From Tubulanus polymorphus (lineage: Eukaryota > Animalia > Nemertea), in assembly GCF_964204645.1 (NCBI RefSeq), contig NC_134033.1, positions 8,936,655 through 9,000,654 of the forward strand: a stretch of DNA of 64,000 bases, written 5' to 3'. Numbering within the stretch: the stretch's first letter is position 1; every line of letters begins with the position of its first letter. The translations under genes and the position numbers were made by a program. The notes beneath the pieces are model-generated. The model saw only the letters and a program-made list of their open reading frames with translations. It searched no databases and had not been told where the DNA came from. Shown here piece by piece: positions 4,301 through 60,605 of the stretch.

Positions 4301-4515
4301 TATCGCTCACGAACTATGCTATAGGATTGGTTGTCCCCAGATGAAAACACGCTCTATGCGATTCCTTGACGATGAGAGCGGCGAACTCACATTTAGGAAT
4401 CAATACTGGGTATTTCGCTTCGGTATCCAACGGCGAATTATGAATACGACAGCCACACTTCTGATGACCTCTTATTCATTAATATACAGTCTCAAATGGG
4501 AAACAGTTTGATTCT

Positions 4516-4704
4516 AGTAATAGGGGTTTAGATGTTCTAGGCCAAAGGTCGAAGGGTCGAGCTCGTAAAAAAATGAAAATAATAATAATTTACAGTTGAA
4601 TTAGTCGCGCACACTCCTAATTCAACTGTAAATTATTATTATTTTCATTTTTTACTCACTCGCCCCTTCAACCTTTAACCTAGAACAACTAAACCTCTAT
4701 TACT
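4516..4704. repeat. Left terminal hairpin (189-nt imperfect palindrome, 12-nt loop at 4605-4616)
   Basis: agtaatagggg...acagttgaattag-tcgcgcacactc-ctaattcaactgt...cctctattact. Confidence 0.95.
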
Positions 4705-4913
4705 CTTAAAATATTCATATATATATAAACATAATTTACATGAATAACATTTAAATTGACAGATTATTCAATATAAAAGTGTTAGCTCTTATAGAATAGA
4801 GATATAGATATATTTTAAACATTATTTCAATATTCATATTTGTATGAGTTAGATTTTTAAACATTAAAAGTGTTAGTAAAGTGTGATTGAAATAATACAT
4901 AATATAAATCATT

Positions 4914-5070
4914 GAATATTTATATTTATATGCGTTAAATTCTTATTTTCAATATAAAAAGTAACTAGTAATTAACGAGTGAAATAATTCATATTTAAAA
5001 CAGTGAATATTTATATTTATATGCGTTAAATTCTTATTTTATGTTTAAAAGTAACGAGTAATTAACGAGT
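4914..5070. repeat. Two ~90-bp-period direct repeats upstream of the ORF, mirrored in the right arm
   Basis: gaatatttatatttatatgcgttaaattcttatttt...aaaagtaacNagtaattaacgagt at 4914-4980 and 5005-5070. Confidence 0.85.
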
Positions 5071-5789
5071 TGATGAAAATATCAATTTTAATAACAAAAT
5101 TACTTATAAATATGAATGAACAGATACTACATTTCAAAGATATCGATTTAAATGAATTAGAAAAATATTTTACAATTAAAAATTTCATTCCTATTAAAGA
5201 TTTGATTAAAACTGCGCGTCTTCGTTTTCAAGTGAAAAATATTACTGAATTAGTGTTTAAAAATCACTATCTGATAATAGAGTTATCGAATGATAAAGAT
5301 AAATTCTTATTCAATACAATAATTCCAAAATTCACAACATTTGATGGAATAGATAAACATTTAATAATTACAGATGAAATGCAATCACTTTTTAATAATG
5401 AAAATTCACATAAAACATTATTTTTACACTTACGTTATTGCCCATTCAGAGAATGCTATGTTATTTTTTACAGTCGAACAATTTATCATTTCAACTGTCA
5501 AACAATTTATCATTTCAACTGTCAAACAATTTATCATTTCAACTGTCAAACAATTTATCATTTCAACAGTCGAACAATTTATCATTTCAACTGTCAAACA
5601 ATTTATCATTTCAACTGTCGAACAATTCTTTTATTTCAACTGTCGAACAATTTATCATTTCAACTGTCGAACAATTTATCATTTCAACTGTCAAACAATT
5701 TATCATTTCAACTGTTAAACAATTTATCATTTCATGCTAAACAATTCATGATCTTTAGGATAGTTACTGAAATCAAAATGATGTTTTAA
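5070..5789 (+). pseudogene. Truncated duplicate of the 5828-6430 ORF, fused to the 24-bp array
   Basis: Translation is identical to the minus-strand ORF up to ...CPFRECYV, then reads (TIYHFNCQ)n and (NNLSFQLS)n. Confidence 0.7.
5477..5739. repeat. Tandem array of 11 x 24 bp (AACAATTTATCATTTCAACTGTCR)
   Basis: Head-to-tail copies without spacers. Unit 7 is 25 bp and the last unit is degenerate. Confidence 0.95.
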
Positions 5790-5827
5790 TGTTTTTAAAT
5801 CATCAGTTATGTTATTAGTTTTTATCT

Positions 5828-6430
5828 TTAATATGTGTTATGATATTTTGATTTAAGATGGTGTGATTTATTGTTTCGAGTATAATATTTTCCACAATTA
5901 CATAAAACGCTTTCATTAGGATTATATTTGGGCGCAACAATTTCATTATCTAAATTACATTGAATTCCAACATCTTTATATGATTTTTCATTTGGAATGT
6001 CAGGGATAAATCTCTTTTCTTGTAATCTGAAAAACATAACATAGCATTCTCTGAATGGGCAATAACGTAAGTGTAAAAATAATGTTTTATGTGAATTTTC
6101 ATTATTAAAAAGTGATTGCATTTCATCTGTAATTATTAAATGTTTATCTATTCCATCAAATGTTGTGAATTTTGGAATTATTGTATTGAATAAGAATTTA
6201 TCTTTATCATTCGATAACTCTATTATCAGATAGTGATTTTTAAACACTAATTCAGTAATATTTTTCACTTGAAAACGAAGACGCGCAGTTTTAATCAAAT
6301 CTTTAATAGGAATGAAATTTTTAATTGTAAAATATTTTTCTAATTCATTTAAATCGATATCTTTGAAATGTAGTATCTGTTCATTCATATTTATAAGTAA
6401 TTTTGTTATTAAAATTGATATTTTCATCAA
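5828..6430 (-). CDS. 200-aa hypothetical protein with a C-terminal CxC-x10-H-x5-H zinc-finger-like motif
   Basis: Uninterrupted 600-nt ORF in very AT-rich DNA. It ends in VLCNCGKYYTRNNKSHHLKSKYH, resembling the CxCG...H..S..H modules of large dsDNA virus and Polinton-like proteins. The true start may be the second codon (ATG) or MNEQ. Confidence 0.7.
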   Translation of the reverse strand: MMKISILITKLLINMNEQILHFKDIDLNELEKYFTIKNFIPIKDLIKTARLRFQVKNITELVFKNHYLIIELSNDKDKFLFNTIIPKFTTFDGIDKHLIITDEMQSLFNNENSHKTLFLHLRYCPFRECYVMFFRLQEKRFIPDIPNEKSYKDVGIQCNLDNEIVAPKYNPNESVLCNCGKYYTRNNKSHHLKSKYHNTY

Positions 6431-6789
6431 CTCGTTAATTACTCGTTACTTTTGAACATAAAATAAGAATTTAACGCATATAAATATTCACTGTTTTAAA
6501 TATGAATTATTTCACTCGTTAATTACTAGTTACTTTTTATATTGAAAATAAGAATTTAACGCATATAAATATAAATATTCAATGATTTATATTATGTATT
6601 ATTTCAATCACACTTTACTAACACTTTTAATGTTTAAAAATCTAACTCATACAAATATGAATATTGAAATAATGTTTAAAATATATCTATATCTCTATTC
6701 TATAAGAGCTCACACTTTTATATTGAATAATCTGTCAATTTAAATGTTATTCATGTAAATTATGTTTATATATATATGAATATTTTAAG

Positions 6790-6975
6790 AGTAATAGGGG
6801 TTTAGTTGTTCTAGGTTAAAGGTTGAAGGGGCGAGTGAGTAAAAAATGAAAATAATAATAATTTACAGTTGAATTAGGAGTGTGCGCGACTAATTCAACT
6901 GTAAATTATTATTTTCATTTTTTTACGAGCTCGACCCTTCGACCTTTGGCCTAGAACAACTAAACCCCTATTACT
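6790..6975. repeat. Right terminal hairpin (186 nt)
   Basis: agtaatagggg...gaattag-gagtgtgcgcga-ctaattc...cccctattact. Confidence 0.95.
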
Positions 6976-7589
6976 GATTCTTCTTGTCGGTTCGAATATT
7001 CAATATAAGTTCATTGTAATGCCGTCTCGGAACCGACTTAATCCAATATAATTCCGCAGTCTTAAACTCACATGAATCAAGATCATCCAATTTTCGACTT
7101 TTGGCGTTGACTCTGCAATTGTAGACAAATCTTAATACTATAACACGCGTTAGCCATTCCCGCTACAAATCTGTGCTGCCCAAAACCAAGTTGATTAAGA
7201 CACTCCCATCAAGAAAATAGTGACCAAAACCTTGGTTCATCCAAATCTTAATGACATAGTTAGACACCAATTACCCGATGAGAGCCAAACTAGTTGAGAG
7301 GGCCGGTGAGTTGAGAGTTGTTTATATAGCTATTACATCACTTATTCAAAAATAGTGCCAGTTTGCTGGACATACGAAATACTCAATAAACAAGACAACC
7401 TACTTGGGCTGCCAAAACTGTATCCGGGTAAAAGTGACAAAGACTAAGTTTAGGTCCATTAATGGACATAGGAAAAATCTACAGATATGTTTTCTTAGCT
7501 ACAAATGACCCGGCAAAACATTGATTACAATATTGAAACATAAAACCACAATCCACTGTCACAGATATAAATACTCCTTGCTTAACTCA

Positions 7590-7665
7590 ATCAAAAAATT
7601 CAAATGAAATTTACCAACCAAATAAATAACAGGGTCAATCCCTATTTTAAGATGAAAAAAAAAAC
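7590..7665 (+). repeat. LINE-like 3' end shared with 51655-51722
   Basis: gaaatttaccaaccaaataaataacagggWcaatccctattttaagat plus an A-run at both sites. Confidence 0.6.
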
Positions 7666-7983
7666 ACATCCGGTTAATGATATTCAACTTCAAGTAGTTC
7701 TGCTGTTGAAGTGCTGACTAAACACGTTTCGCTCAAATTCGCGATTTTGTTATTCATTTCATTTCACCGCGTGTTAGTTTGTTCTCGCTAATCGATCAAA
7801 ATTTTTAAAACTTACACAGAAAATAATTGTTGGAGTCTAACGAATAGAAATTTGCTCCACAGAGGTCAATTTTTAGCGATACTAAGTGCGTAAAAAATCA
7901 TGTTTATTCCAATATCCACATTATCCAACGCAGCCTTTGAACGAGAATCGGTTGATTTAGATTTCGATCTTATTTTCCATTTC

Positions 7984-8792
7984 AACTAGAGGACCAAAGG
8001 TCCTGAGGCTCGAAAAATATCAGAAATTCAAAGGTGTCCCCCTTTCGAGTTTAGAACATTTATATTCCGTGGTATTATACTGGTACCTTCTGAAACATGG
8101 CCATGGCCGCGACTGCACATCAATACCTGGCGTTGGGTTTTTCGGTGTTACACTTATATATACATGTACAACTAAAGTAAACGGAGATTGGGAAAACACA
8201 AACAATGAACGCTTTTACGGTTCTCTTCACATTTCCACTGCTCTCTGGAATGATGAGATGAAGAATAAAAATCGACATCAGTAGCACCAAAGCTAACCGT
8301 ACCATTTTTTCTCACTACTTGAAATAACCTTTGCGCAAAGCCAGAGAAAAATTCGCGATTTTGGAGAGAGATAAATATAATGCAACACTCATCATCGATT
8401 CGACACAGCAGTTTTACTTGAATACTTGTAGTAAAGCGCGGTCGATTGATGCGCGCGGGCAGTATCTTATCTTCAAGCACATAACTATCGAATTGTTTCC
8501 AATAAATTTGTTTACACTCTTCGGGTAAAAGTAACGCGACACATCTGAATTTCTTCCGGACAGCAAAGTAAAATTAGGTGACAATTGGAACTATTTAATT
8601 TCGCGCATTGAAAGATGCATACGCTTTAAGCGGCGTGATCAGTACGCACAATAGGGAGCATTTATTGATTGCTAGAAAAGCGATAAAGCGACTCAACTTG
8701 TCGAACTGAACGGTTGATTGTGCGAATAATACTAGTCGCTCCCTACTCTACGGCACATACGATCTGTTAATGCTCTTTTCGAGCCTAAAAAA
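7984..8792 (-). mobile_element. Helentron-type non-autonomous element (HINE family C)
   Basis: subTIR AGGCTCGAAAA (~8006) / TTTTCGAGCCT (~8776), terminal hairpin AGGACC-AAA-GGTCCT next to CTAG/TT, and a T-run at the other end. Confidence 0.6.
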
Positions 8793-19901: not shown

Positions 19902-21169
19902 AAACTAGGGGTCCAGGGACACCATGCCCACTTGGGAAGTGGTTCCAAATGCTCAACAATCTAACAATTTCAATATTTGACGCCCCCTGATGACCATATA
20001 CGAAAACCAATGACCTTGAAACTCACAACAATCATAGATAATGTCAGCAGCTACAAATTTGTAATTGATTGTGATAACAAAATATGCCTCGTTACCAATT
20101 TAATATGGAAATACTAAGTTATTCTACTACTAGGTGACCATATTTGAAAAACCCAATAACCTTGTTACCCACCACAATCATAGAACATGTCATGAACTAC
20201 AACTTTGCAATTGATCATGGTAACAAAATATGCCTAGGTACCAATATAATAAGGAAATACTAAGTTATTCTACTATTCAACGCCCCTGGTGACCATATAG
20301 AATAGCTAATTTCCTTAAAACTCACCACAATCATAGACAATGTCATGAGCTACAACTTTGCAATCGATTGTGGTAACAAAATATGTGTTGGTACAAATAT
20401 AATATAGAAATACTATGAGATATTGTATCATTCAACGCCCCCTGGTGGCCATATACAAAAACCAATGAACTTGAAAATCACCACAATCATAGAACACGTT
20501 ATAAGCTACAACTTTCTAATTCATTGTTGTAACAAAATATTCTTAGGTATCAATATAATGTGGAAAAACTTTTCCCACCTACGAATGAGTACTGATGACA
20601 CCAAGATGGCCGTCAATTGCGCCATTATTGGCTGATCAAAAATACCTGTCTCAGGTATGAAACATGCCTTTCCAAAGAATACCCATCAGCAATTGCAATG
20701 AGAAATGGCAAACCAGTAGGAAGCTACAGGACTCGGGCCAATATTAACATTTTTGGGCACTTAAAAGGTCATAGGACGACCATCTTGAGTCCGATCGACC
20801 CAATTTTTCTAATGCTGATGGGCCCTGGAGGGGTTCAAATATATACAAAAGATCAAGGTAGTTGAACAAGGCATCTTCAAAATTTCCCTAAAAAAGTTCA
20901 AAAACGAGTATAAAGTGCTGATTTTGGCGAACAACAATGGCTGCCAGTCGGCCATCTTGATTCTGACAGGGCCAGTTTTTTGGCTGAAGATGTGTCTAGG
21001 GTAGATACATGCATAAACCAAATATAAAGACATTACCTTGAAGCGTCTTCAAAACTTCCCAAAATAACTGGATTCCGTCTGCGGATGGACGGACGGACGG
21101 ACGGACGGACGATGGACGAAAAGTGAACGCAATAGCCCGCAGGGACTTAAGTCCCAAGTGGGCTAAAAA
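19902..21169 (-). mobile_element. HINE family A, copy 1 (complete)
   Basis: On the minus strand it reads TTTTTAGCCCACTTG + hairpin + (GTCC)n microsatellite, a central ~156-bp tandem array, then 3' subTIR CAAGTGGGC + hairpin + CTAGTTT. Confidence 0.85.
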
Positions 21170-22769
21170 TGCATTAAGAATTCGTGTAGGCATCGTGCTG
21201 AAAAGAAATCCAAGATGGATAGCACCCCTGGCGGCCATACTTGAATTCAATTTTCAATAAGGGGTAGACATTTCGCCTACCAAAATTCTTACACCTAGTA
21301 TCATGAAAATGCATCAATAATTGAAGGCCGTTTCGTGCGTGAAATTCAAGATGGCTGACCTGGCGCCCATTTCAGAAAGCTGGTGATCCCCATATATAAT
21401 AGGCATGGACAGCTTACCTACCCTGATCCTCACAACAAATTGTGCGGAAAACCATCAAGAATTGCGGGCTGCATCGTGCAAACAAGAAATTCAAGATGGC
21501 CACCCCAATGGCAGCCATATTTGATCACCAATGACCTTTTTTACAATAGGGGTGGACATCTCGCCAGACCCAATCTTCAAGCTAATTTCAGAAAGATTAG
21601 GCTAACAGGTCTTACAAGTGGGCTTTAAAGGTGCGGTTGACTTCTAATTCATTGCAAAAATCAATTCATATCTTCTAGGGTCCTGTCCTTCTGGTGCTAT
21701 GACCTATTTCATCGAACCAATTCATTGAAAATTGCGAGTGAACACAACATGCCGCTGGTCCCTAGGGTGCTAAAAATTAGGCACTTACTTTTCGTGGTGA
21801 ATGGATAAATGATAGACCGATCCCACCAACAAAGACGTCAGGAGACCAGCTGGACTCGCTTTTCTAAAAAGTATAATACATGAAAGTGTTAACGATAGAT
21901 TGATCACGAATCAATTAAATGTTGTTGAGAATCCCCTTATGATTCAAACACTATAGGACCAAAGGTCCTGTCCTCTTGAGTTTCTATTTTCATAATCTTA
22001 ATGTAAATACGTATATCACTTCTCTTTTAATGATACAGATTTGTTTATTTTTACAAGTGCCCTGGAGCACTTCAGCCAGTCTGTAGTATCATCTATTGTT
22101 TTCATAAAATAGCAATATCTTCTAAAACTGTGTAATTGTTTTTTTCAACACAGAAAATGCTTGGCAGGAACAAATACTTCCTACAGATTTGTTTTCTCCG
22201 ACAAATTATGCTGATTTTTTGGCTGAATAAAATTCAACTAAATTGGGTACCCAGCCGCTTCATATTTTGATTTGATTTAATCACTATGACTATCAAATCC
22301 TCATATGAAATTTGAAACTCATACTGCACCAATCAGAGCGTGTTACTCCACTACGCCTGAGATATCAGAGTAAAATATGGTTAGAAAGATCGACAGCTAT
22401 GAGGATTGCAAGGTGCTGTTCACACTGTGTAATGTAGTCATCTGCATATTTATTGACTAGGTAAAATGAATTAATCTGAACAAATTCTTGATAACTTATT
22501 ACAGTATTTGAAAATCCTTAACAAGCTGGCCCTAGGCGACAACAGTTCTCGAGCTCAGGCTCATACCAAAGTTCAAAATCACCCTGTGTAAGTTCCCATA
22601 GCATTTTGGATATGTTGTAACCTGGTACAGATGTAACCTGGTACTAAATTTTTTCAAGACGTTTGAATTTCGACCCCATTCCTCAGTTATGAGGTCATAT
22701 TGTACTGGACCCATTTTTGCACTGCAGAACTAGACCCCGTACTAACATATTACCAAGATTATCAAAATT

Positions 22770-25938: not shown

Positions 25939-27688
25939 AAAAAAAAAAACATGGCCGACGTAGCCAGTTCACGTTCTAACGAGCTCTGGGAATAATATAG
26001 CTTTCTACCTTCATGGCTGCGTAAAATCTTGGATATACGCTATACTGATCATCAAAATTTCAGTTCGTCGGCTTGATAGATCACCGTGATCAATTAGGGT
26101 ATGTCGAATTAACTGATTAAGTTGAAGTAGACAGCACAGTGATTATAAATGGATGAGTAATCAGCAGTTACAAAGTTGTCTTTTTTGCTGAAATTGAGTT
26201 TCTCTTAGTAACTCCGGATATTGAAATGCTATAAGAGAAATAAAGAAAAATCTGGGATGAGATTAAGAGGAATCGTATCGAATTTCTGCCTGCAATTCCA
26301 AGGTCACTATAATGTTTCTATGCGTAAACGGTGGTGTCAAATCTATCTGAATAAAACTGTACTCACGCGTGTCACTCTACAATCTCTACAGCGTAATCAG
26401 ACAATAATCTGTGATCTTAACAACCATGGCTGATCAAAGTACAACAGAGCAAGATAAACCACAGGGTAGTGACCTTGCAAATAAATCAACTGAAAGCGAG
26501 GATTTTATGAATTCTGGAAATATTGATGCTACGGACAAAACTTATGAACCTGCCCCTTCTGCTTCCCTATCTGCTGATAAATCTGATAAACGCCCGCAAA
26601 AGAAAAAAACGCAAACAGGTCCTGTATCATCCTCTGATGGCGATACCTCAATTAACAATACGAATGTCGATGCTATTGTAAACACGGATAATGAACACCG
26701 ATTATCCAAATAGTGCCTCTTCCTCTGCTATTTGTGAAACTCTAGTTATGATTCAAAAGTCCATGGTAACACACGAAAGTCTTGAAAAGTTTAAGCTCTC
26801 TCTGGAGGATACTATGGACCGAAAATTAGAATCGCATTACCAACGCGTAGAAAAAAACACTAGAATATGAATGCCGCCTTTACGATCTCGAACGAGAAAA
26901 TGATAATCTAAAGAAAGAACTAAAAGATCTTAATTTCAAAGATGACGAGCAAAAACTTGAGTTAAAATGTCTGAAACAGGACCTAATATCTATCAAAAAG
27001 GGTTGAAAATGAACAATATTCCCGCTGTAATAATATTCGTGTTTTTGGAATAAAGTAACAGGCCGGAGAAGACTGTGGGCTTACGCTGAAGGATATCGAT
27101 GTTTGTCACAGGAAAAAGCCAAAAATACCCAGCGTTGACGAGGATGGAGAGTACCTCCCGAATCCAATAATTGTTCGCTTCAAAGACCACCATGTTCATA
27201 ACAGGATATTTTTCAATAAAAAACACTTGAAAGGGAAAAAAATATTCGTGAAAGAAGATTTGTCGCCTGAAATTGTCACTTTTATGGCTACTGTTAGAAA
27301 AAATAGGGATTTCCTCAAAATGTGGGCGATCAATGGCAAAATTCATGCTCTTAACAAAGACGGTAAAAAACTGCCAATTAAACTTTATGAATTCAAATAT
27401 AAAAACAATTAAGTAATTTTCAAATTTACTGTACTGTGCTTATTTCTGCTTTTGTTTACTTATTAATGTGAAGTCATGTCTGTAATTCTATAATTCTCTC
27501 TGCTCCAGTGACGATGACTATCATTGCGCGCGGATTACAGAATTTATTATAGGTTTCCCTCAGCATGCTCACTTTTCTTCTTACTTTCATATATACTTGT
27601 CACACGTCGCGGACTTTGTCAATATTTATACACTGTGTTCATGTAACGTTATATCAATGGGACATTATAATTCCTTCTGCTTGCTAAT

Positions 27689-30600
27689 ATGATGGAATTT
27701 AACAGCATACAGCGTGACTGTTTGTATTATAACAGTAACGACTTAGTAAAGGAATTCTCTGACTCCAGTTTTGGCCTTATTCATGTAAATGTCAGGAGTC
27801 TGGACAAGAATTTTGATAATCTCCTTTTAACTTTAGATTCTACTGCATGTAAATTTGACGTCATAGGCGTCACAGAGACTTGGGCGAGAACAAGCATGGA
27901 TAATAGATCTTTATATCCAATTCCAGGATATAATTCAATTTTCAAATGCAGAGATCACTCTAGAGGTGGTGGAATAGCCTTTTATGTAAAAAATTCTATA
28001 AATTACAAAATTAGGACTGACCTCGATATACTCATTATTAATTCAGTTGAATATATGTTCATTGGAATTAATCTTAGGAGCTTTCCGGAAAAAATTCTTA
28101 CTGGTCTATTTTACAGACCTCCTCAACTCAAGGTCAGTGACGTTATTAGTGATTTCTCGAAAATATTTGATAAGATATCTTGTAATTCTAGAGTTTTTCT
28201 TATGGGAGATTTCAATATCAACATACTTAATGAGGATCGCGACCTTCACACGGCAAATTTTGTTGATACCTTGAGTTGCAATTCCTTTGCCCCTTTCATT
28301 AACAAACCTACACGCATTATTGATAAATCGGAATCTCTTCTAGATATAATTTTCACAAATTGTAATGAAGAGTATTACATCAAATCAGGCATAGTAATGA
28401 CTGATATCTCGGATCATCTACCTTTTCATCTACCTTCAATTCTAAATAGGGGTCTAATCTAAAACTAGGGGTCCAGGGACACCATGCCCACTTGGGAAGT
28501 GGTTTCAAATGCTCAATAATCTAACAATTTCCATATTCAACGCCCCATATAGAAAAACCAATGACCTTGAAACCCACCACAATCATAGAAAATGACATGA
28601 ATAACAACTTTGCAATTTATCATGGTAACAAAATATGCCTAGGTACCAATCTAATAAGGAAATGCTAAGTTATCCAACTATTCAACGCCCCCTGGTGACC
28701 ATATAGAAAAACTTATGTCCTTAAAACTCACCACAATCATAGATGATGTCATGAGCTACAACTTTGCAATCGATTGTGGTTAGAAAAATATACATAGGTA
28801 CAAATATAATATAGAAATACTAAGTTATTGTATTATTCAACGCCCCCAATGACCTGGAAACTCACCAAAATCATAGAACACGTTATGGGCTACAACTTTC
28901 CAACTGATTGTAGTAACACAATATGCTTAGGTATAAATATAATGTGGAAAAACTTTTTCCCACCTACGAATGAGTACTGATGACACCAAGATGGCCGCCA
29001 ATTGCGTTATAATCGGCTGATCAAGAATACCTGTCTCAGGTATAAAACAACCCTTTCCAAAGAATACCCATCACAAATTGCAATGAGAAATGGCAAACCA
29101 GTACGAAGCTTCAGGACCCAGAATTTCGGCCAAAATTGACGGCCATCTTGAGCCCGATTGACCCAATTTTTCTTAAGCTGATGGCTTCCTTGGGGGTTCA
29201 AATATATACAAAAGATCAAGGTAATTGATCACAGCGTCTTCAAAATTTCCGTCAAAAACTTCAAAAATGTCTAAAAAGTGCTGATTTTGGCGAACAACAA
29301 TGGCTGCCAGTCGGCCATCTTGATTCTGACAGGGCCAGTTTTTAGGCTGAAGATGTGTCTAGGGTAGATACATGTGTAACCCAAATATCAAGACATTACA
29401 TTGGAGCGTCTTCAAAATAACTGGATTCCGTCTATGGACGGACGAGAACGCAATAGCCCGCTGGGACTAAAGTCCCAAGTGGGCTAAAAACTGCACATCA
29501 TGTAAATTATAGACAAGTTAATGAACGCAACATGCGGATTTTCAAAAGGTATCTAATTGCCGAAAAATGGAATGATGTATATAATAGCACCAATGCCGAA
29601 CTGGCGTACAATACATTTATTACCTTATTTACTAAATACTATGACAACTCATTCCCAATTACCAAAAGGAAATGGAATCGATTAGAAGATAAGCTAAACC
29701 CTTGGATGACAAGAGGTCTATTAATTTCACTGAAACATAAGGAGAAGCTCTATACAGAATATCTTAAGAAGAGATCAGCTGAATCAAAATCAGTGTTTAG
29801 TAAATACAGAAACTGTTTTCACAAATGTATACGTGTGGCTAAAAAAGATTTTTAAATGCAAAAGTTTGAAACTATAGGGACTGATTCCAAGCAGACCTAG
29901 GGATTATCAATACTACATTACATAAAAGAAAGGCGTCTGATTTTCCTGAAAAGTTCAGTCATAATGATCAATTCATTACCGACCCCCTCGATATAGCTAA
30001 TAATTTCAAAGACTTTTTTATAAATATCGGTCCAAAACTAGCTGATAAAATTCCAGATACAAACAAAGATTTCAAGAGTTATCTAAAAAACAGAGTTGAA
30101 GACACAATTTTTCTTGCTCCAGTGACTAAATTAGAAATAGAAAATATTGTTAAACTTTTTAAATCAATGAATAGTTCTGGAGTCGATAATGTTAGTCAGA
30201 AAATATCAAAGGAGGTCATCCATCTTACCTCTGATCCCTTAGTATACATCTTCAATCTTAGTTTGGTATCTGGCGTTTTTCCTAGTACTCTCAAAATTGC
30301 TCAGGTTTGTCCAATTTATAAAACCGGGGATAAGGCAAGTTTAAAAAATTATCGCCCCATCTCAAACCTACCATGCCTCTCTAAAATTTTAGAAAAAATT
30401 ATGTATTCCTGTGTCGTTGAGTTTTTTGAATCTCATAATGTAATTTCAGACTCCCAGTTTGGGTTTAGGAAAAAACATTCCACGTCCTATGCCCAAACGA
30501 AAATAATCGATAACTTAATTGATAAATTGGATTGTGGAGAGACTATTTTAGGTATTTTTTTAGATTTATCTTAAGCTTTTGATACCATAGATCATGCAAT

Positions 30601-31622
30601 ACTATTTAGCAAACTTGAACACTATGGTAAAAATTATCTTTGTAACCGACTTCAGTGTGTAAAATATGGAGATAAAACATCCAATAGAATGAAAATAATA
30701 CGTGGAGTCCCACAAGGATCGATCTTGGGTCCTCTACTCTTTATATTGTACATTAATGACTGCCCCAATGCGTCAGCCATTTTTCAGACTATAATGTTCG
30801 CGGATGATACTAATATCTTTGCTTCCCATAAAGAGTACAGAATTTTGGAGAGAACTGTCAATTTTGAACTTGCAAATTTGGATGTCTGGTTTAAGTAAAA
30901 AAAACTTTCATTAAATCTGGACGAAACACATTTCATGGTATTTAGTAGAGCTAAGAAAAAAAAAAGACTTCCGTATATATCGGAGATTTACCTTTACAAA
31001 AAGTAAGAAACACTAAATTTGTAGGAGTCCAAATTGATGATGATTTAAATTGGAAAGCCCATAAACAATATATTGCGAAGAAAGCGGCACAAGGTATTGG
31101 TATCATCCGACTATTATCATATTTTGTTCCACGATCTGTTCTTCTAAAATGTACTATTCTCTTATTCATCCATACATTCATTATTGTAACATGACTTGGG
31201 CAAATAATACCACTACTAATCTTAACAGTCTTGTGGTATTACAAAAGAAAGCGATTAGAGCGATTACTGGAAGCGGCTCCTTAGCGCACATGTCACCTTT
31301 ATTCAAAAAGTACAAACTATTGAAATTGGAGGATATCAACAAACTACAAATTTGCCAGTTCATGTACTTATATAATAAAAATGATGTCCCTAAAGCCTTC
31401 GATGATTTCTTTTTACATAATTCACAAATTCACAACCACAACACTAGAAATAGTACTGGTATCAATTTTGTAATCCCATATTCAAGAACCAACCTTCGTT
31501 ACAATTCATTAAGATCGAAAGGTCCAAGACTTTGGAACACTTTGGATCCTAAGTTAAAACTATCTAAAAATCTCAGTTCTTTCAAAAGAAATTTAAAGAA
31601 GTCCATCATGGACAATTACTAA
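27689..31622 (+). pseudogene. LINE ORF2: apurinic endonuclease plus reverse transcriptase
   Basis: APE motifs NVRSL, GVTETW, GGGIAFY, YRPP, GDFNI and SDHLP. RT motifs YRPIS, QFGFR, FLDLS*AFD, GVPQGSILGP and FADD. Several stops and frameshifts. Confidence 0.9.
28462..29490 (-). mobile_element. HINE family A, copy 2, inserted in LINE ORF2 at an A/T run
   Basis: Same termini as 19902-21169. Confidence 0.85.
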
Positions 31623-33140: not shown

Positions 33141-33829
33141 GATAAATTTACCAAGCATATTTCAACACAGTATGGTTGCGCCATCTGCAAAATGAAAACC
33201 TACCTGACGGAATCAATTCTCTCAGCGGTCTCTATTCATATTCACGTGATTTATTCTTTTTTTTCCCTTTTCCACACTATTTTCATCGTAAGTACATAGG
33301 CATTTTTACCTTACCGCTGTTTCCGATACAATCCGGTAAATTTCATTGCGCTCACCTCGATCTACAGAACACTTCGTGCAAATTTTGATGAATCAACGTT
33401 ACAAAAGCACTGTCGGGCAGTAAACATAAAAAAATGAGCCCCATTCAATGAGGTGACATGTTTTTCTGAGTCGTCATCCCAAAATCCATCACAGGCTCGT
33501 CACTTCAATTATCAATTCAAGTATAAATAAACAAATTTATAGCCGCAAGACCTAACATTCAGGCGCGGTCTTCAAACAGCAATTTTAACAATTACCCATT
33601 TTCTTGTTCAGTACACTTAACCGATCCACAGGATATTTACTGCTCTAAATATTATAAACACTGTTGAGCTGTAATCGATGAATCGATGTGTGTCTTTACA
33701 TCGTCGTTCTGTGGATCTGTTGCAAGTTCTCCTCGCAATGAGAATCAAATAAAGTAAAAATACATTCATTATTCCCAGTGATTTGGCCGCGGACTTCAAT
33801 CAGTTAGTTAAACAAAATTTACCGGATAT

Positions 33830-35112
33830 TTAGTACGTTTAGATCAAGATTGGAGTCCGGGAGTTTTCTTCTTAAGAAATTGAGAGTTGGTTCCAATGGT
33901 ATATTAGTGAACAAGGAAACAGCGTCGAAAGATATAAATTTTTGTCCATTAGGTTTGAGATTTTTGAGTTTGTCTAAAAGATCCATATTGTGCCGAATGT
34001 GAGAATCAGAAAAAGTACCCAAAGCCGGGGATAGTACTTTAGCCAGATATTTGGAGAGCCGATATGATGGAGAATTGATATTAGAAATGATCGGTCTTAA
34101 CGGTGAATTGGGTTTATGAATTTTTGGAAGACCATAAGCATAAGGAAGATTTGGAAGCCGAGAGTTAAATTTGGAGAGGAAGTCCGAATTGTCAGGAAAT
34201 TTCTTAGAGATGTTTTTTAAACCTAAATTAAAAGCTGATTGCATCTTTTTCAAAGGGTTGTTTTTGATGGATTTGTAGAAATTGGAATCACCGAGAATAG
34301 CAAACATTTTAGAATTGTAATTGATCAAATCTTGAATAACAATTTTGCCGCCTTTATCAGCCTTGGAGATGCAGATGGTTTTGATGGATTTAAGTTCCTG
34401 GAGAGCAATCGAAAATCTCCGAGGAAAGAGCTGATTAGATTGACCTTGAAGGGTATTCCAAATGGTGTCCAAATTCATGAATATAAAATTGTATTGAAAA
34501 CTAGCCGGAGGAGATCTTTCCATACGTTCAACGAAATCCAAAATGTGTTGTTTTCTATGCGGGAGAGAGAAATTTAATCCTAAACCGAGAACTTGAATTT
34601 GTGTTTTGGTTAATTTAGCCGAAGATAGATTGACAACATTATCAGTAGCGCAAAATTTGGTCCAAGGGCTGTTGTCGATTAATTTATTCAGAATGGAAGA
34701 GAAATGCGAATTTTTCTTTTTTTTTATTTAGACGATGTACCGCGCAAAGATTCTTGATGCCCGAATGAAGAGAGTGCCAAAGGAAAGCATCAGGTATATG
34801 GTGTCTGAGAAAACGTTCTGCTTGTCGCATTTTATAGAAATTAGAGTTGGTAGTTTCTTTTGCTTCCAAAATGCAATGTCTTAGATGAGATGCTGCTTCA
34901 TTGGAAAATGGTTGATCTGATTTGAATTTATTCAACCAATTCAGAGATTTAGGAATAACCTGTTCTTGGAGACTTTTTTGAAGAAATATGACGTTTTCTT
35001 TGGATTTGTGAGCTTTATAAGCAGCAGATTCATATTTTCGAAAAGCAAAGATCAAATGAGGAAAGGTTATGAATAAGAATTTCAAAGCCAAATTAAAATC
35101 CGTGGGTAACAT
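33830..35112 (-). pseudogene. PLE ORF, N-terminal half (one frameshift in the A-tract near 34720)
   Basis: ORFs 34684..35112 and 33819..34541 join across a poly-A slip. Confidence 0.85.
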
Positions 35113-35231
35113 AATAGAACGATGACCACACTCAAACGTGGTGAACGGATAATAAGATAAGATCCCACTATTTACAGATTAAAAGAATTTAAAAACCAGA
35201 ATTTATTTATTAAATCTAAAATATTTAAAAG

Positions 35232-35273
35232 ACACGACGTTTCGATCTCACCCTAGAGATCATCGTCAGGTGT
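35232..35273 (-). ncRNA. Minimal type I hammerhead ribozyme (5' pLTR)
   Basis: ACAC-CUGACGA-U-GAUCUC-UAGGGU-GAGAUC-GAAA-C-GUC-GUGU. Confidence 0.8.
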
Positions 35274-35533
35274 GAGAAATAGACTAAAAACAGGGGTATA
35301 TATACAGAGGAGGACAGGTTAATTGAGTAAATTGGTGAGTGAGTAAATAATTAGTGTTTGGCAAGGCATGAAGTAATATACTTAGAAAGAAGGGAATTAT
35401 GCGGAGAAAAGCCATTATTTAAATTGGTACTAATATCTGAGTGACGAGTAATTAGGGCAGACTCAACTATGTGGCGTTTAGTGTAATTGCTGGAAGTATA
35501 AATAATTTCGGCTTTATCAAAATTAAAACGATG

Positions 35534-36516
35534 TCCTTGAACACTTTGAATCCGAAATTCTTCCTAAGTACGCTGGCTCTAAACCTAACTTTTGGATTAG
35601 ATATGTTGATGATATTCTGAGCTTAGTTTCTGATAATTTTGATCTTACCTCTTTTATCGACTTCATCAACTCCCAATATCCATCTTTGAAATTCACTTTT
35701 GAATGGGAACAAAATGACCAAATTCCGTTTTTAGATGTTCTAATTCACAATAAATTTTCTCATTTGATTTTCTCAGTCTACCGTAAACCTATCAACGCTG
35801 AGGCATACCTTCACTTCTTTTCGTTTACTGCCAAATCAATCAAAATCGGTCTCGCTCAAGGCCTCTTTCTCCGTGCACTGCTGATCTGCGATGAAACCTT
35901 CCTTTCGGCTGAATTTGACCATATATCCAACTCTCTTAGAAAATTGGCTTACCCTGATCACATTTTGAAAATCGCTATTTCTAAGGCTAAACGTACTTTC
36001 TTCAATTCTAAACCTCCAGAAAATAAAAAACACATTTCAGAGTTCATTGTAGTTCCGTATGTACCTGTTTTGGAAAAGTTTCGTCACTCTCTCCCTTTAT
36101 TGGATAAACAAATCATTTTCACGTATGAAAACAAAATTAGTAAGACTTTGGTTAAAAACAATCAATCTAAACCTTTGGACTGCGGAGTTTACAAAATTCC
36201 TTGTCTTGGCTGTGATAAAATTTACTTTGGAGAAACTGGTCGTGATTTAAAAACTCGAATTTCGGAACACAAAGAGGATATAATAAGTCAAAAACCGGCT
36301 AGTGGCGTAGCCAATCACGTTTGGAACACTGGTCATCGTTTTAATTTTGATAAAGCCGAAATTATTTATACTTCCAGCAATTACACTAAACGCCACATAG
36401 TTGAGTCTGCCCTAATTACTCGTCACTCAGATATTAGTACCAATTTAAATAATGGCTTTTCTCCGCATAATTCCCTTCTTTCTAAGTATATTACTTCATG
36501 CCTTGCCAAACACTAA
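35534..36516 (+). pseudogene. PLE ORF, C-terminal half (RT YVDD motif, thumb, GIY-YIG endonuclease)
   Basis: Open frame from LEHFESEIL through RYVDD to the stop at 36516. Confidence 0.9.
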
Positions 36517-36593
36517 TTATTTACTCACTCACCAATTTACTCAATTAACCTGTCCTCCTCTGTATATATACCCATGTTTTTAGTCTATTTCTC

Positions 36594-36635
36594 ACACCTG
36601 ACGATGATCTCTAGGGTGAGGTCGAAACGTCGTGT
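36594..36635 (+). ncRNA. Minimal type I hammerhead ribozyme (3' pLTR)
   Basis: ACAC-CUGACGA-U-GAUCUC-UAGGGU-GAGGUC-GAAA-C-GUC-GUGU. Confidence 0.8.
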
Positions 36636-37029
36636 CTTTTAAATATTTTAGATTGAATAAATAAATTCTGGTTTTTAAATTCTTTTAATCTGTAAATAGT
36701 GGGATTTTATCTTATCATCCGTTCACCACGTTTGAGTGTGGTCATCGTTCTACCAAGCATATTGATCCATCGAAGCGTTTTTCATTCCAAAGAAAAAGAT
36801 TTTAGTGGTACTATATAGTCTTTTCTTCACGGTATAATGAGTAATCTTCATTCAAACAAAATGTTCTTCACACCCGAACACAATAGGTAATACATGAACC
36901 AGGGTTTTCTTAGTATCCAATATTCATATTATGCCTTTTCAGGTTAAAGCTTATGATACATATTTCTGACCATGTACGGGACACAACTTGATTAGGTCGT
37001 TTTGGAAATTTACTCGGTCCTGCACATTT

Positions 37030-37602: not shown

Positions 37603-39535
37603 AATTTTTGGCACTAAAATTTGTATTTCCGAGTAGTACTTACCCTTTCCTATGGTTTTTGCCAATATTTTCTAAATTTGGATTGATCGCCAATGGTTTT
37701 TCTATACGACCCGGCCCAGCGGTATTGCATTTAGCCACCGGCGAAATCCGCCATCTTTTTACGTCATAGCAGACCCAAAAAATGCAGCTATGCGGGGCAG
37801 GTGGGCGGGATTCCCACCATAGGAAAGGGTAAGTACTACTCGGGAAATACAAATTTTAGTTCCAAAAATAATATTTCCGTCGAGTACTGTACCCTTTCCT
37901 ATGGTTTTTGCTAGACTAGCCTAGCACAAGGATGGTGAGAAAGGTAGATAGAAAAACCACCGCTCAAACGCAAGGTAAGAGGGAAAAAGAGAGCACTTAC
38001 CCAAGCACGGAATGGAGCACTGTAGCACAGGGAAGACCGGTTGGCCACAGTGAGTCCGTCCAGCTCAGGGGCCCCCCCCCCGGAATTTTGCGAAATTAAT
38101 ACTTGCAGATATGAGCCCAAACTATGTACAAGGATACACCTCCTGTGATCCTGATGATGCAACATAAATATTCTACACTAAAGGGTCCGATCGGAAAGAA
38201 CGGACACCTTGAGCCATGACAACAGGACCAAGTGAAGTTAATGAGCCTTACTGGCCTGAAACATCCCGTAAATAAAATGACGTGAATGTCGATGGAGAAT
38301 TCCAAAAGGCGGCCCGACAGACTTCCTCCAACGGAGCACCCGAAAAGGCTACGCAGGAAGTAGCCATAGACCTCACTTGATGAGAAACCACTCCCTCCGA
38401 GGAAAGATTCTCCTTCAATAAAATGTCCTTGATCAGTGAAAAGACCCATCGGGCCACTGTGTCCTGTGAAATATCACCCTTTAGGTGATCCAGCAGCGGA
38501 ATAAATAAACGCTCCCGTGAACCCCTCCGTGGAGCAGAGCGATCTAAATAGAAACACAACGCCCGCACAGGACATAAAGTCCTGTCCAGAGTCCTGTCGC
38601 TCGTTGGTTCTTTGCCAAAAATTCCAAAGCAGGCCGCAGCGAAACAAATTCTTTCGCTGGCCCAAAGACAATATGACCTTGTCGGACTAAAAGCGCATGA
38701 ATCTCAGAGCGACGGGCCGAGCAAGCCAAGAACAGCAAAAATACAGTCTTCTTCGACAAATTTGCAAATGACGCTGCCGAAAGAGGTTCAAATGGAGCCT
38801 CCATTAACTTCTTCAAAATTACAGACAGATCCCATGGTGGAACTGTCCTTGGTACCCGAGGCCAGGAAATAGAAAACCCTGCAACAAGCTGGGATATCCG
38901 ATGATCCCCTGCTACATTTGGCCATCCAGAAGCACGCAATGTATGAGAAATCGTGGAGCGGTAACCTTTAATAGTTATGACCTGCAACCCTTTTACTACA
39001 AATAGGTGCAGTAAAAAATCTGCCAATTGAGCTACAGAGGGTGAGCATGGATCAATTTCCCCTGCAGCACACCAATCCGCAAAATGACTCCATTTGGCAT
39101 CGGAAATGGATCCTGCGATAGAGGAGGCAGCCTGTTCTGAAAAGCCTGAAGCTGACAAGGATCGCTGGACAATGGCCAGGCGAGCAAATTTAACCACTGG
39201 CTGTTTGGATGATGCCGAAAGTTCCCCGGAGACAGAAGCGATGGGAAATTCGGAAGAATCCTGGGGTTGTCGCACAGTAGGTTGAGAAGTGGTAGGAGCC
39301 ATTTCTGAGCCGGCCAACATGGTGCTACCAGAACTATGTTGCAATTGACTGATCTCTCCAGTAAGCGCGGCAGGACTGGTGTGGGCGGGAACGCATACGC
39401 ATGCATCCCCGACCAGTCCAGAGAGAAGGCATAGACCCCCCACGCTTCCGCGTCTGGAAACGGGGACACAAACAGAGGACACTTCCGATTGAACCGGGTG
39501 GCAAACAGATCCAGCAGCGGATTAGGGGACTGGGG
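37603..39535 (-). mobile_element. 5'-truncated DIRS retrotransposon (MT-like domain, tyrosine recombinase, ICR and right terminus)
   Basis: DLFATRFN...AFSLDWS...YAFPP...LVAPCWP (MT). PPWDL...FEPL...ACSARRSEIHAL and HQVRSMATS...AAFWNS.STFTSFY (YR). Inverted-repeat module at 37605-37910. Confidence 0.9.
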
Positions 39536-40047
39536 ATCGGAATGGTTTTATTGTAGACGTGGACCAAGTTAGTGCAAGCTTTTGGGTAGTTGTTATTTGA
39601 ATATTGTAGTGGTTTAACGGAATCTATCATCATGTTGATAATTGCTAGATTACTTATCGGATTGTGTTGAAATGATTTTGCATAGAGACATTTACAATTG
39701 AAAGAAAAAACGTGACTAACTCGAGTGACTTCAGGTGAAGAGAAGCAAACACGGAAATAGATAGGAGCCATGATTTTTCTTTTTAAAATAATAAAAACGT
39801 TAAGCAAGAATAAGTTGCATTTCCTTCAAATGACAATCCACTACGATCATCCGATAAAGTTTATTGCCACCATAGACTACCACCCCCTGGCTGTTTGGAG
39901 ACAGGGAACCAGTCTTCAATTCAATTCAGAATTTATTTTAAAGAAAAGCGGTTTTTAAGTTTTAGATATTCAAACTGAAAAATATAAATGTTCGTACAGA
40001 GATTTTACAAATGGCAGCTAACGCAAGCACCTAATGAAAGTAAAAGA

Positions 40048-40982
40048 AGGTACCAATATAATAAGGCAATACTAGGTTATTCTACTATTCAAACGCCCCT
40101 TGGTGACCATATAGAATAACTGATTTCCTTAAAACTCACCACAATCATAGACGATGTCATGAGCTACAACTTTGCAATTGATTGTGGTAACAAAATATGT
40201 ATTGGTACAAATATATTATAGAAATACTAAGATATTGTATTATCAAACGCCCCTTGGTGGCCATATACAGAAACCAATGAACTTGAAACTCACCACAATC
40301 ATAGAACACGTTATAAGCTACAACTTTCGTATTCATTGTTGTAACAAAGTATGCTTAGGTATCAATATGATGTGGAAAAACTTTTTCCCACCTACGAATG
40401 AGTACTAATGACACCAAGATGGCCGCCAATTGCGTCATAATTGGTTGATCCAAAAAAATCTGTCTCAGGTATAAAACATCCTTGTCCAAAGAATACCCAT
40501 CACAAATTGCAATGAGAAATGGCAAACCAGTAGAAAGCTACAGGACTCAGAATTCGGGCCAAAATTAACATTTTTGGGCACTTAAAAGGTCATGGGATGA
40601 CCATCTTGAGTCCGATCGACCCAATTTTTGTTATGCTGATGGGCCCTGAAGGGGTTCAAATATATACAAAAGATCAAGGTAATTGATCAAGGTGTCTTCA
40701 AAATTTCCCTCAAAAAGTTCAAAAACGTGTCCAAAGTGCTGATTTTGGCGAACAACAATGGCTGCCAGTCGGCCATCTCGATTCTGACAGGGCCAGTTTT
40801 TGGGCTGAAGATGTGTCTAGGGTAGATACATGTATAAACCAAATATCAAGACATTACCTTGAAGCGTCTTCAAAACTTCCCAAAATAACTGGATTCTGTC
40901 TACGGACGGACGAACGGAAGGACGACGGACGAAAAGTGAACGCAATAGCCCGCTGGGACTTAAGTCCCAAGTGGGCTAAAAA
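40048..40982 (-). mobile_element. HINE family A, copy 3 (truncated)
   Basis: Aligns to 20237-21169. Confidence 0.85.
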
Positions 40983-41597
40983 CCAATGAACTTGAAACTC
41001 AACACAATCATAGAACACGTTATATAATATAAGCTACAACTATCCAATTCATTGTCGTGACAAAATATGCTTAGGTATCAAAATAATGTGGAAAAACTTT
41101 TTCCCATCTACGAATGAGTACTGATGACACCAAGATGGCTGCCAATTGCACCATAATTGGCTGATCAAAAATACCTCAGGTTTTAAAACATCCTTTTCCA
41201 AAGAATACCCATCACAAATTGCAATGAGAAATGGCAAACCAGTAGGAAGCTACAGGACTCTGCATTCAGGCCAAAATTTAGATTTTTGGGCACTTAAAAG
41301 GTCATAGGACAGCCACCTTTAGTCCGATCGACCCAATTTTTTCTTATGCTGATGAGCCCTTGGGGAATTCAAATATATAGGAAAGATCAAGGTAATTGAC
41401 TCAAAAAGTTCAAAAATGTGTAAAAAGTGCTGATTTTGGCGAACAACTGATATTAGGCTGACGATGTGTCTAGGGTAGAAACATGTGTAACCCAAATATA
41501 AATACATTACATTGAAGCGTCTTCAAAACTTCCAAAATAACTGGATTCCGTCTACGGACAATAGCCCGCTGGACTAAAGTCCCAAGTGGGCTTAAAA
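40983..41597 (-). mobile_element. HINE family A, copy 4 (truncated, directly abutting copy 3)
   Basis: Aligns to 20460-21169 with internal deletions. Confidence 0.8.
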
Positions 41598-47062: not shown

Positions 47063-47866
47063 AGGTAAAAATCCCCCCGGTAAATATCCCCCCGGTAAAT
47101 ATCCCCCTGGTAAAAATCCCCCCAGGTAAAAATCCCCCCCGGTAAAAATCCCCCTAGGTAAAAATCCCCCCTGGTAAAAATCCCCCCCATATCCACTTTT
47201 CTATAAAACTAGAGTAGAAAAAATTAACTTTTTACAACATTATTTAGGAATACATAAGTACATTAGATATTTTATTTTTACTTTTAAACCATAGTTTTTA
47301 TAGAAAATTTCAAAATAAGTATTTTGTAATTACAGTACAGTACAGTACAGTAATTATTCTTAAATTATCTTAGGGGTAATCACTCCAGTGCCCAAAAAAT
47401 CAAAGAAGTTAATAAATGTAAATCAAATGGGTTGGCTCCGTGACTAAATAACTGTTAAGTAATAATTATTCATTTTCAACAGTGGCCAATCTTTAATCAG
47501 CAAGTAGGCTAATTTAAATGACTGAATTCAATCAACTGACTCGTACCCCTAGAATAAGTATTTTGTCTCTACACATTTTATTCTTTATTAAACTTTGGTA
47601 ACCGTATTTAATGGATGGAATTACTATACTAGAGTTAAATAAAGCAATAAAGTGCAATAAAATTTCGAATCTATATTTTTTTAAACATAATAGCTGTTGA
47701 AAATTTTAGTGAAATCGATTATGGGGGGATTTTTACCAGGGGGGATTTTTACCTAGGGGGGATTTTTACCGGGGGGGATTATTACCTAGGGGGGATATTT
47801 ACCGGGGGGATTTTTACCGGGGGGATATTAAACGGGGGTATTTTTACTGGGGGGAATTTTTACCTG
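47063..47866. mobile_element. Foldback-type MITE with modular TIRs
   Basis: (GGTAAAAATCCCCCC)n at 47063-47190 and its reverse complement at 47722-47866. Confidence 0.8.
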
Positions 47867-59594: not shown

Positions 59595-59795
59595 TATGAT
59601 TTTTGGAGGTTTATTCCGAGTTACAAACTCGTTTTCTCAGTTGAATGTGATTTTTGAGGTTAATTCCGAGATTGTAACTCGGAATAAACTAGATTTCTCT
59701 GATGCGATTTTTGGAGGTTTATTCCGAGTTTGTTACTCATTGGAATAAACCTCCAAAAATCGCATTTAATTGAGAAAACAAGTTTATTCCGAGTA
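59595..59795. repeat. Cluster of direct and inverted TTATTCCGAG-containing modules
   Basis: gatttttggaggtttattccgag occurs three times and ggaataaacctccaaaaatc occurs inverted. Confidence 0.7.
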
Positions 59796-59819
59796 AAAAA
59801 CTATGTTTAGAGAGAAACT

Positions 59820-60605
59820 TTACAATAGATTGTGGTAACAAAATATGCATACGTAGGTACCGATATAAATAGATAAATTATATATTATTCAATATTTAAC
59901 TCCCCCTGGTGGCAAGAACTAAGAATTAGGTGATTCCAATTCCAAGTGAGATGTATCTTACCACAGTGCTCATGACCATCAAATATCATGACTATAAGTT
60001 AAAACCTCATGATATTTTCCTCAAAAAACTTTTTTTCCACCTAGGAATGAATACTGATGACACTAAGATGGCCGCCAATTGCGTGGTAATAAGCTGATCA
60101 AAAAATTGTTTGCATGTTTTAAAATGCCCTTTCCACAGAATACCCATCACAAATTTCAATGACAAAAATCAGTAGGAAGCTACAGGAGTCCGAAGTCAGG
60201 CCAAAATTGACATTTTTTGGTGCAAAAAAGGACACAGGGCGGCCATCTGGAGTCCGATCACCCCAATTTTTCTCATGCCCATGAGCCCATGGGGCATACT
60301 AATATATACGAAAGATCAAGATAATTGATCAAAGTGTCTTGAAAATTTCTCTCGAAAACTTGAAAAATCTGTAAAAAGTGCTGATTTTGGCAAACAACAA
60401 TGGCTGCCCATTGGCCATCTTGATTCTGACTGGACAAGTTTTTGGGCTGAAAATGTGTCTAGGGTAGATACATGTGTAAACCAAATACGAAGGCATTACA
60501 TTCAAGCCTCTTTAAAACTTCCCAAAATAACTGGATTGCGTCTACGCATGGACGAAAAGTGAACGCAATAGGCTGCTGGGACTTAAGTCCCAAGTGGGCT
60601 AAAAA
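59820..60605 (-). mobile_element. HINE family A, copy 5 (older, truncated)
   Basis: Ends in ...gggacttaagtcccaagtgggctaaaaa. Confidence 0.8.

Follow-up and report, generated by a model that had tools for sequence, protein, structure and literature searches.

What kind of mobile DNA produces an insertion of about 2.5 kb with two nearly equal ends, each opening with a palindrome, and with no intact gene for replication or integration? The question is raised by a 2460-bp element at positions 4516-6975 of the window, by which we mean the whole analysed stretch of 64,000 nucleotides from Tubulanus polymorphus (contig NC_134033.1), eukaryotic and repeat-rich DNA with fragments of long interspersed nuclear elements (LINEs) and Penelope-like elements. 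We propose that the element is, with good probability, a non-autonomous derivative of a Polinton/Maverick in which the polymerase end was copied in mirror image, and that it was mobilised by the protein-primed polymerase (pPolB) and the integrase of a helper.

The element is flanked on both sides by GATTCT, for which the chance of any 6-mer match is about 4e-4. Its termini are AGTA...TACT (AGTAAT at the ends), and its GC content, 0.24, is below that of the flanks (0.40 and 0.36). Four features give its outline:

4510..4515, plus strand: left copy of the 6-bp target-site duplication (TSD), GATTCT
6976..6981, plus strand: right copy of the 6-bp TSD, GATTCT
4516..5473, plus strand: left arm, 958 bp, an inverted copy of the right arm
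6027..6975, minus strand: right arm, 949 bp, an inverted copy of the left arm

The arms are 98.4% identical over 958 columns, with four substitutions and two indels over 949 columns. An earlier sequence-only reading of this DNA had described a 2460-bp insert with a perfect GATTCT TSD and AGTA...TACT termini, all confirmed here by coordinates and alignment. It also described inverted arms of ~945 bp, which we measure at 958 and 949 bp; a palindrome of ~190 nt opening each arm, now measured at 189 and 186 nt and shuffle-tested; an internal 24-bp array, found at 5473-5734; and an intact open reading frame (ORF) of 200 aa, which has 199 aa when counted from its first ATG (5828-6427, minus strand). 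A 6-bp TSD, AGT/ACT ends and terminal inverted repeats (TIRs) of 46-1447 bp are Maverick traits according to PMC8097293, and in its TSD length, AGT...ACT ends and TIR length the element resembles the animal Polintons/Mavericks of PMC8097293, PMC11161782 and PMC6431247.

A short stretch at the centre, together with the relatives of the element, ties it directly to Polintons. Two features meet there:

5736..5837, minus strand: remnant of a Polinton-type family-B DNA polymerase, 34 codons (102 bp), lying directly after motif C (YFDTDS)
5473..5734, no strand: 24-bp tandem array of 10.9 copies, separating the left arm from the polymerase remnant

The remnant was located by reading the element's centre in six frames, as a 35-residue open stretch (5733-5837, minus strand); when this stretch was searched against longer proteins, four of six candidates matched, with E from 2e-11 to 2e-7. 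Among 5.8 billion clusters, residues 1166-1199 of a 1319-aa protein, P0001, match it at 30 of 34 positions (E 2e-11). At the protein level the remnant is 88% identical to P0001, and for loci in metagenome contigs the values are 82% (L005), 76% (L002) and 71% (L003, L004 and L007); the DNA is 85% identical to that of L005 over 115 columns. When seven proteins of L002, L004, L009 and L011 were compared with the window by tblastn, the sole match was the polymerase, at the remnant, and these seven queries found no integrase, packaging ATPase or capsid gene in the window. The statement of the sequence-only reading that the element has no polymerase thus holds for an intact pPolB gene, such as L002, L003 and L005 possess, and fails for the 34-codon remnant. 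P0001 and its relatives carry what we take to be the family-B motifs YIDANNLYG, KLMNN.FYGK and YFDTDS, plus exonuclease motifs; Pfam assigned no PolB family to these polymerases, giving just zinc-finger and Endonuclease VII hints. The array unit (window 5473-5752) shares the register of the remnant's last eight codons and is ~70% similar to them. Growth of the array out of the breakpoint is possible, a chance likeness of AT-rich DNA being the alternative.

The relatives, namely the best 80 of 115 confirmed metagenome loci found by polymerase alignment, place the remnant within a clade of virus-like elements. In a FastTree phylogeny of the 61 sequences kept (22 of 81 loci were dropped as short or broken), P0001, L002, L003/L004 and L005 form a single clade with support 0.998; L003, L004 and L007 represent one element at 99.6-99.8% identity. 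Locus L004 runs on into an integrase (Pfam rve, E 7e-9), the sister locus L009 in the surrounding clade encodes a Pox_A32 ATPase and a double jelly-roll (DJR) capsid protein, and L063 has rve-chromo and an ATPase. Such a content of rve, ATPase and capsid genes is that of Polintons (PMC6431247, PMC12747079). The strand order of end, small ORF and polymerase in L002 and L003 is also the order in the right half of the window's element. The same kind of search in viral contigs (alignment A2) gave one distant locus, and scans of viral contigs with the remnant, P0001, the end motif described below and the L004 integrase gave zero matches. The relatives thus supply rve (L004), intact polymerases (L002, L003 and L005) and the DJR capsid (L009). 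Together with the remnant they support the earlier claim that the element derives from a virus-like one, is non-autonomous and was integrated in the Polinton manner.

The ends of the element provide a second link to these relatives, through the following features:

4516..4704, plus strand: left terminal palindrome, 189 nt, with a 37-bp perfect inner stem (4568-4604/4617-4653) and a 12-nt loop
6790..6975, minus strand: right terminal palindrome, 186 nt, polarity as in the left one, loop 6878-6889
4547..4560, plus strand: GGTCGA-N2-GGTCGA, the end motif, located 31 nt in from the terminus and at equal offset in L002 and L005

Both palindromes fold so that pairing extends through the terminal base (z -20.3 on the left, -18.9 on the right), and none of 200 shuffles was equally stable. 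The outer and inner arms of the palindrome differ at seven or eight positions; the mismatches are identical at both ends of the element and must therefore predate the insertion or have been copied between the ends. The terminal 16-mer occurs four times in the window, always inside the element, against 0.58 expected; 45 matches to it in prokaryote genomes were chance-like and were discarded. The motif GG[TG]CGA-N2-GG[TG]CGA starts 31 nt inside AGTAA at both ends of the element and in L002 and L005, and with T allowed for C the pattern turns up in 2 of 81 loci, its only other occurrences being in the four palindrome arms of the element. Its positions are 4547-4560 (outer) and 4660-4673 (inner) in the window, 221-234 in L002, 75-88 in L003 and 188-201 in L005. 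In the outer copies both hexamers contain CG, and in the inner copies at least one reads GGTTGA, a change that could mark the inner end as inactive.

Among the relatives, L002 begins with 189 nt of flank of higher GC (0.36), followed by a 257-nt palindrome at 190-446 that spans AGTAATGG (190) to CCATTACT (446) with z -13.9, an ORF of 121 aa and an intact polymerase of 1363 aa. L003 starts within its hairpin, whose inner arm ends in CTATTACT at 120 (z -2.4, 2 of 200 shuffles as stable). L005 has AGTAAG at 157 after a flank of higher GC and no palindrome (z -0.2); its region 157-360 shows the end motif at the usual offset and no small ORF ahead of the polymerase, a state that reflects either natural loss or assembly collapse. 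Two of the three relatives with end information thus combine a palindrome with an intact polymerase gene. A scan for hairpins upstream of 26 of the 81 polymerase loci, in contigs most of which probably stop short of an element end, revealed long ones in L002, L003 (partial) and L079 only. The one in L079 (135-373), a palindrome of 239 nt and 91%, stands upstream of a Polinton-type polymerase that is broken; the palindrome has no AGTAA end and may be a host repeat. The perfect inner stems, of 37 bp in the window, 28 bp in L002 and 16 bp in L003, are unrelated in sequence, and polarity is identical in all four hairpin ends of the three elements. With L002 and L003 both possessing it, the palindrome is likely an inherited trait of the lineage.

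Do the palindromes themselves start replication? The sequence-only reading had suggested so, by analogy with parvoviruses, and the element would then be a satellite whose 3' end folds back and primes a helper polymerase, whose ends are resolved by nicking and which is inserted by an integrase. Judged from their predicted folds, the palindromes of the window and of L002 pair to the very last base and so appear capable of self-priming, a 3'-OH primer being structurally possible. The unrelated yet perfect inner stems, together with the shorter symmetric tips seen in reads of the species (see below), also indicate that symmetry is kept or regenerated, and a model of this kind has been proposed for protist virophages as well as Polinton-like viruses (PLVs) in bioRxiv 10.64898/2026.07.28.741278. 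That preprint, however, ties the palindromes to non-pPolB elements, and L005 does without a hairpin. Neither the element nor the scanned ORFs of the partial loci L002, L004 and L005 yielded an HUH Rep or a superfamily 3 (SF3) helicase. The polymerases of hairpin-bearing relatives keep N-terminal patterns resembling those of the terminal protein and of an OTU domain; of four polymerases compared, three have the EGSG loop, all have D.KCF.W and three have HY[MV][WY]I. These were assessed at the level of short motifs against section 6 of PMC11161782, and with the EGSG loop and the OTU Cys/His patterns retained in the places given there, protein priming is the default assumption. All four ends have one polarity, an outcome expected about once in 8 to 16 cases under free flip/flop; this points the same way, although the argument is weak since integration could select one isomer. 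With no nickase found, no palindrome in L005 and one polarity in four of four ends, we favour a role in restoring duplex ends, or a tolerated by-product of copying back, over self-priming. A hairpin-primed satellite is improbable, and the earlier claim of parvovirus-like replication is not supported, given that the scanned ORFs yielded no Rep or SF3, that the relatives' polymerases retain motifs like those of a terminal protein and an OTU domain, and that L005 has no palindrome.

Raw reads labelled as the same species (run X6, of which ~12 in 100 were sampled) show how the family is built. On 5740-8200, 12283 reads were placed. Their depth, when summed, is 0.3-14 for those bins of the flank that are least repetitive (~2 next to the element's right end), 113-198 for the ORF, 535 for the remnant and 1015-1264 for the palindrome. 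The family thus numbers tens to hundreds of members, most of them with 90-95% identity. Towards the end the depth rises in steps, from 231-248 at 6404-6569 through 429-621 at 6570-6818 to 1015-1264 at 6819-6984. Reads near the tip are diverse: at joints 6852-6919, reads of X6 and X1 show hairpin tips that are shorter yet symmetric and whose loop is related. Two groups of X6 reads, ~400 and ~600, diverge from the window near 6950 into other termini with CCCTATTACT; at least two subfamilies that differ in subterminal sequence have this ending. A 265-nt contig of run X5, listed as a marine metagenome, has two differences over the ORF. The features concerned in the interior of the arms are:

4711..5070, mirrored at 6430-6783, plus strand: degenerate ~91-bp subterminal repeats, present in both arms
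5073..5473, plus strand: mirror copy, truncated, of the ORF (5' two-thirds); its frame stays open across the array as far as a stop at 5787-5789
5828..6427, minus strand: intact ORF of 199 aa, or of 186 aa when the second ATG (6388) is taken as the start, with a C-terminal zinc-finger-like Cys/His module

Joints at 6431-6712 in reads fit varying counts of the 91-bp units among family members.

These depths bear on a simpler origin, in which the element is a plain internal deletion of a Polinton whose own ~950-bp TIR includes the start of the ORF. This account departs from our own in the mirror-copy step only. TIRs of up to 1447 bp are known (PMC8097293), and the six places at which the arms differ show that neither arm is a fresh copy of the other. 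If the ORF lay in both arms in most of the ORF-bearing copies, however, the depth should be doubled there. In X6 the part of the ORF inside the arms has a mean depth of 159 compared with 194 for its unique part, and depth rises nearer the ends instead. The duplicated ORF is therefore probably not the family norm, and we regard a plain deletion as possible but the less likely course of events.

The same data address two further explanations. A foldback or composite cut-and-paste element, made of two 189-bp miniature inverted-repeat transposable elements (MITEs) and a captured Polinton fragment, would fit with each palindrome resembling a small element with TIRs of its own and with the hairpin having the highest read depth of the element. 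The arms, however, extend 770 bp beyond the palindrome, its inner end has no flanking duplication, and the end motif and palindrome sit at the ends of the polymerase-bearing L002, L003 and L005 (in L005 the motif only). The long arms and the relatives' ends largely refute this composite, which we consider very improbable. The structure could also stem from a fold-back chimeric read in the assembly, as no read or contig among those examined spans the element. Against such an artefact stand the perfect 6-bp TSD, the six differences between the arms, independent reads in every bin of the right half and the same end architecture in independent contigs, and we give it hardly any credence.

The ORF itself adds little to the identification. 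It had no match in Pfam, PHROGs, PDB sequences or viral contigs, and none of 53 candidates was retained in the 5.8-billion search; an Atlas search gave a best score of 0.87, a lead only. A single-sequence fold prediction for it had a pLDDT of 37 and was set aside. In a search of representatives, eight proteins matched its last 40-50 residues, a C.CG..YT..NKS.H module, and for its N-terminal part these searches found no homologue. L002 (571-933) and L003 (338-721) have a small ORF between hairpin and polymerase, in the place that the window ORF takes up, and several ORFs of the polymerase clade begin at TAAATG. The predicted model of the L002 protein (pLDDT 65) resembles OB-fold and single-stranded-DNA-binding (SSB) proteins at E of at least 0.017 (PDB) and at least 0.006 (BFVD) and Z of at most 5.2. 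Given these weak matches and a 14.6% hhalign link, an SSB function is not claimed for the window ORF, which is best treated as an accessory Polinton ORF.

How might such an element have arisen? Our proposal starts from what is seen directly, i.e. the anatomy, the remnant, the end motif and palindrome common to the element, L002 and L003, and the integrase within the clade (L004). The element has Polinton ends and polymerase homology and is devoid of core genes, as expected of a non-autonomous Polinton derivative. A large deletion would have joined the end-proximal ORF to the interior of the polymerase gene; synthesis would then have changed template in or close to the 24-bp array and returned along the same end. 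The two ends so produced would be equal, each with the signals needed for terminal-protein priming and by the RVE integrase. On insertion, the RVE integrase of a helper would generate the 6-bp duplication. The palindrome might let a displaced single strand rebuild a duplex end locally, or it might be a tolerated product of copying back, and the inner copy of the end motif may have been altered so as not to serve as an end. One or other of these two roles is probable for the palindrome, and hairpin priming is a doubtful third.

Several observations weigh against this proposal. The full-length helper in the same species is putative. The TSD evidence consists of a single pair, L002 and L005 supplying one end each, and the AGTAAT of the ends differs from the (AGT)2 or (AG)3 motif of PMC8097293. 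The 958-bp TIR falls within the published range and is compatible with a plain internal deletion, and the depth comparison loses sharpness through the divergence of subfamilies (most X6 reads are 90-95% alike). Terminal-protein and OTU domains were assigned by short sequence motifs rather than by structure. L005, the closest to the remnant among the end-bearing loci listed (82%), is without a palindrome, and the function of the palindrome is itself a proposal from sequence. The hhalign match of the window ORF to the small ORF of L002/L003 is weak, with 14.6% identity over 36 columns.

Non-autonomous Polintons as such have precedents. Kapitonov and Jurka are said to have described, in 2006, Repbase entries with Polinton ends and no core genes, mobilised in trans; to our knowledge, neither terminal palindromes nor a mirror-copied single end has been reported for these. 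Hairpin derivatives of protein-primed linear plasmids are known from pGKL, and a palindromic deletion derivative of another such plasmid, kalilo, has reportedly been found. These derivatives resemble the present element in having arisen by fold-back deletion from a protein-primed replicon and in depending on their parent, but they are not known to integrate with a TSD or to have a nested terminal palindrome. The hairpins of parvoviruses and adeno-associated virus are likewise imperfect terminal palindromes of similar length that pair to the last base; here, in contrast, there is a simple stem-loop rather than a T or Y shape, an integrase-type TSD, no Rep/NS1 or SF3 found, and no flip/flop in the four ends compared. 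In anole, non-autonomous Polinton copies were not noted in the part of PMC3014272 used here. Unlike autonomous Polintons, the element measures 2.5 kb instead of 13-25 kb, has no intact core gene and ends in palindromes of 186-189 nt, while, as in Polintons, genes for an RVE integrase, the A32 ATPase and a DJR capsid occur at neighbouring loci in its clade.

A parallel to the palindromes is found in virophage subtypes 1, 2, 5 and 6 and PLV subtype 4 of Halocafeteria seosinensis, which have terminal palindromes and for which the hairpin-priming model was put forward (bioRxiv 10.64898/2026.07.28.741278). These share with the element and its relatives a palindrome within the TIR adjoining the TSD and an RVE integrase; for them, hairpin priming is a hypothesis. 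They differ in having a protist host, a 52-nt palindrome (subtype 5) and mostly no pPolB, whereas we describe 186-257 nt in an animal-type genome with pPolB-type relatives. The earlier remark that the combination was not recognised from described families needs correction, as that preprint presents TSD-adjacent palindromes with a hairpin model, if in protist elements. The words "hairpin" and "palindrom" have no mention in the portions of PMC8097293 and 10.1101/2023.08.22.554363 consulted, and full-text literature searches, whose scope ended short of founding papers, Repbase entries and preprint supplements, gave no report of long terminal palindromes in animal pPolB Polintons. A prior description is possible. 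Non-autonomous Polintons and protist terminal palindromes are thus already known, and what we add is palindromes in company with pPolB-type relatives.

Elsewhere in the window, other repeats are found. Positions 33819-36752 hold a Penelope-like retroelement with a reverse transcriptase (RT) fragment on the minus strand, GIY-YIG on the plus strand and 422-bp inverted repeats (35115-35536/36331-36752), and 27671-31622 a broken LINE with endonuclease and RT. ORF fragments at 38248-39825 resemble a DIRS-type tyrosine-recombinase retroelement (no Pfam match for the one ORF scanned). A dispersed repeat family with tandem units of 146-156 bp occupies 19991-21173, 28545-29495, 40048-41597 and 60024-60605. 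An 800-bp foldback or MITE-like element (47064-47864) has arrays of GGTAAAAATCCCCCC units of 15-16 bp at its two ends, inverted relative to each other, and a 134-bp imperfect palindrome (78%) at 59669-59802 is unrelated to the 2460-bp element.

How Polinton replication starts, and how a protein-capped linear DNA becomes an integrated copy, has never been shown, which is where the interest of this locus lies; removal of the terminal protein is called unclear in section 6 of PMC11161782. Palindromes beside intact pPolB-type genes, with a fixed asymmetry between inner and outer motifs and one relative without a palindrome, constitute a natural contrast, and the remnant links a gene-poor palindromic mini-element directly to its parent. 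It is conceivable, though we think it unlikely, that this animal-type Polinton clade uses its palindromes as working 3'-fold-back priming ends beside the terminal-protein domain. If so, these elements would possess two modes of initiation, and mirror-image mini-elements such as the one described here would be copy-back satellites that spread on the hairpin mode.

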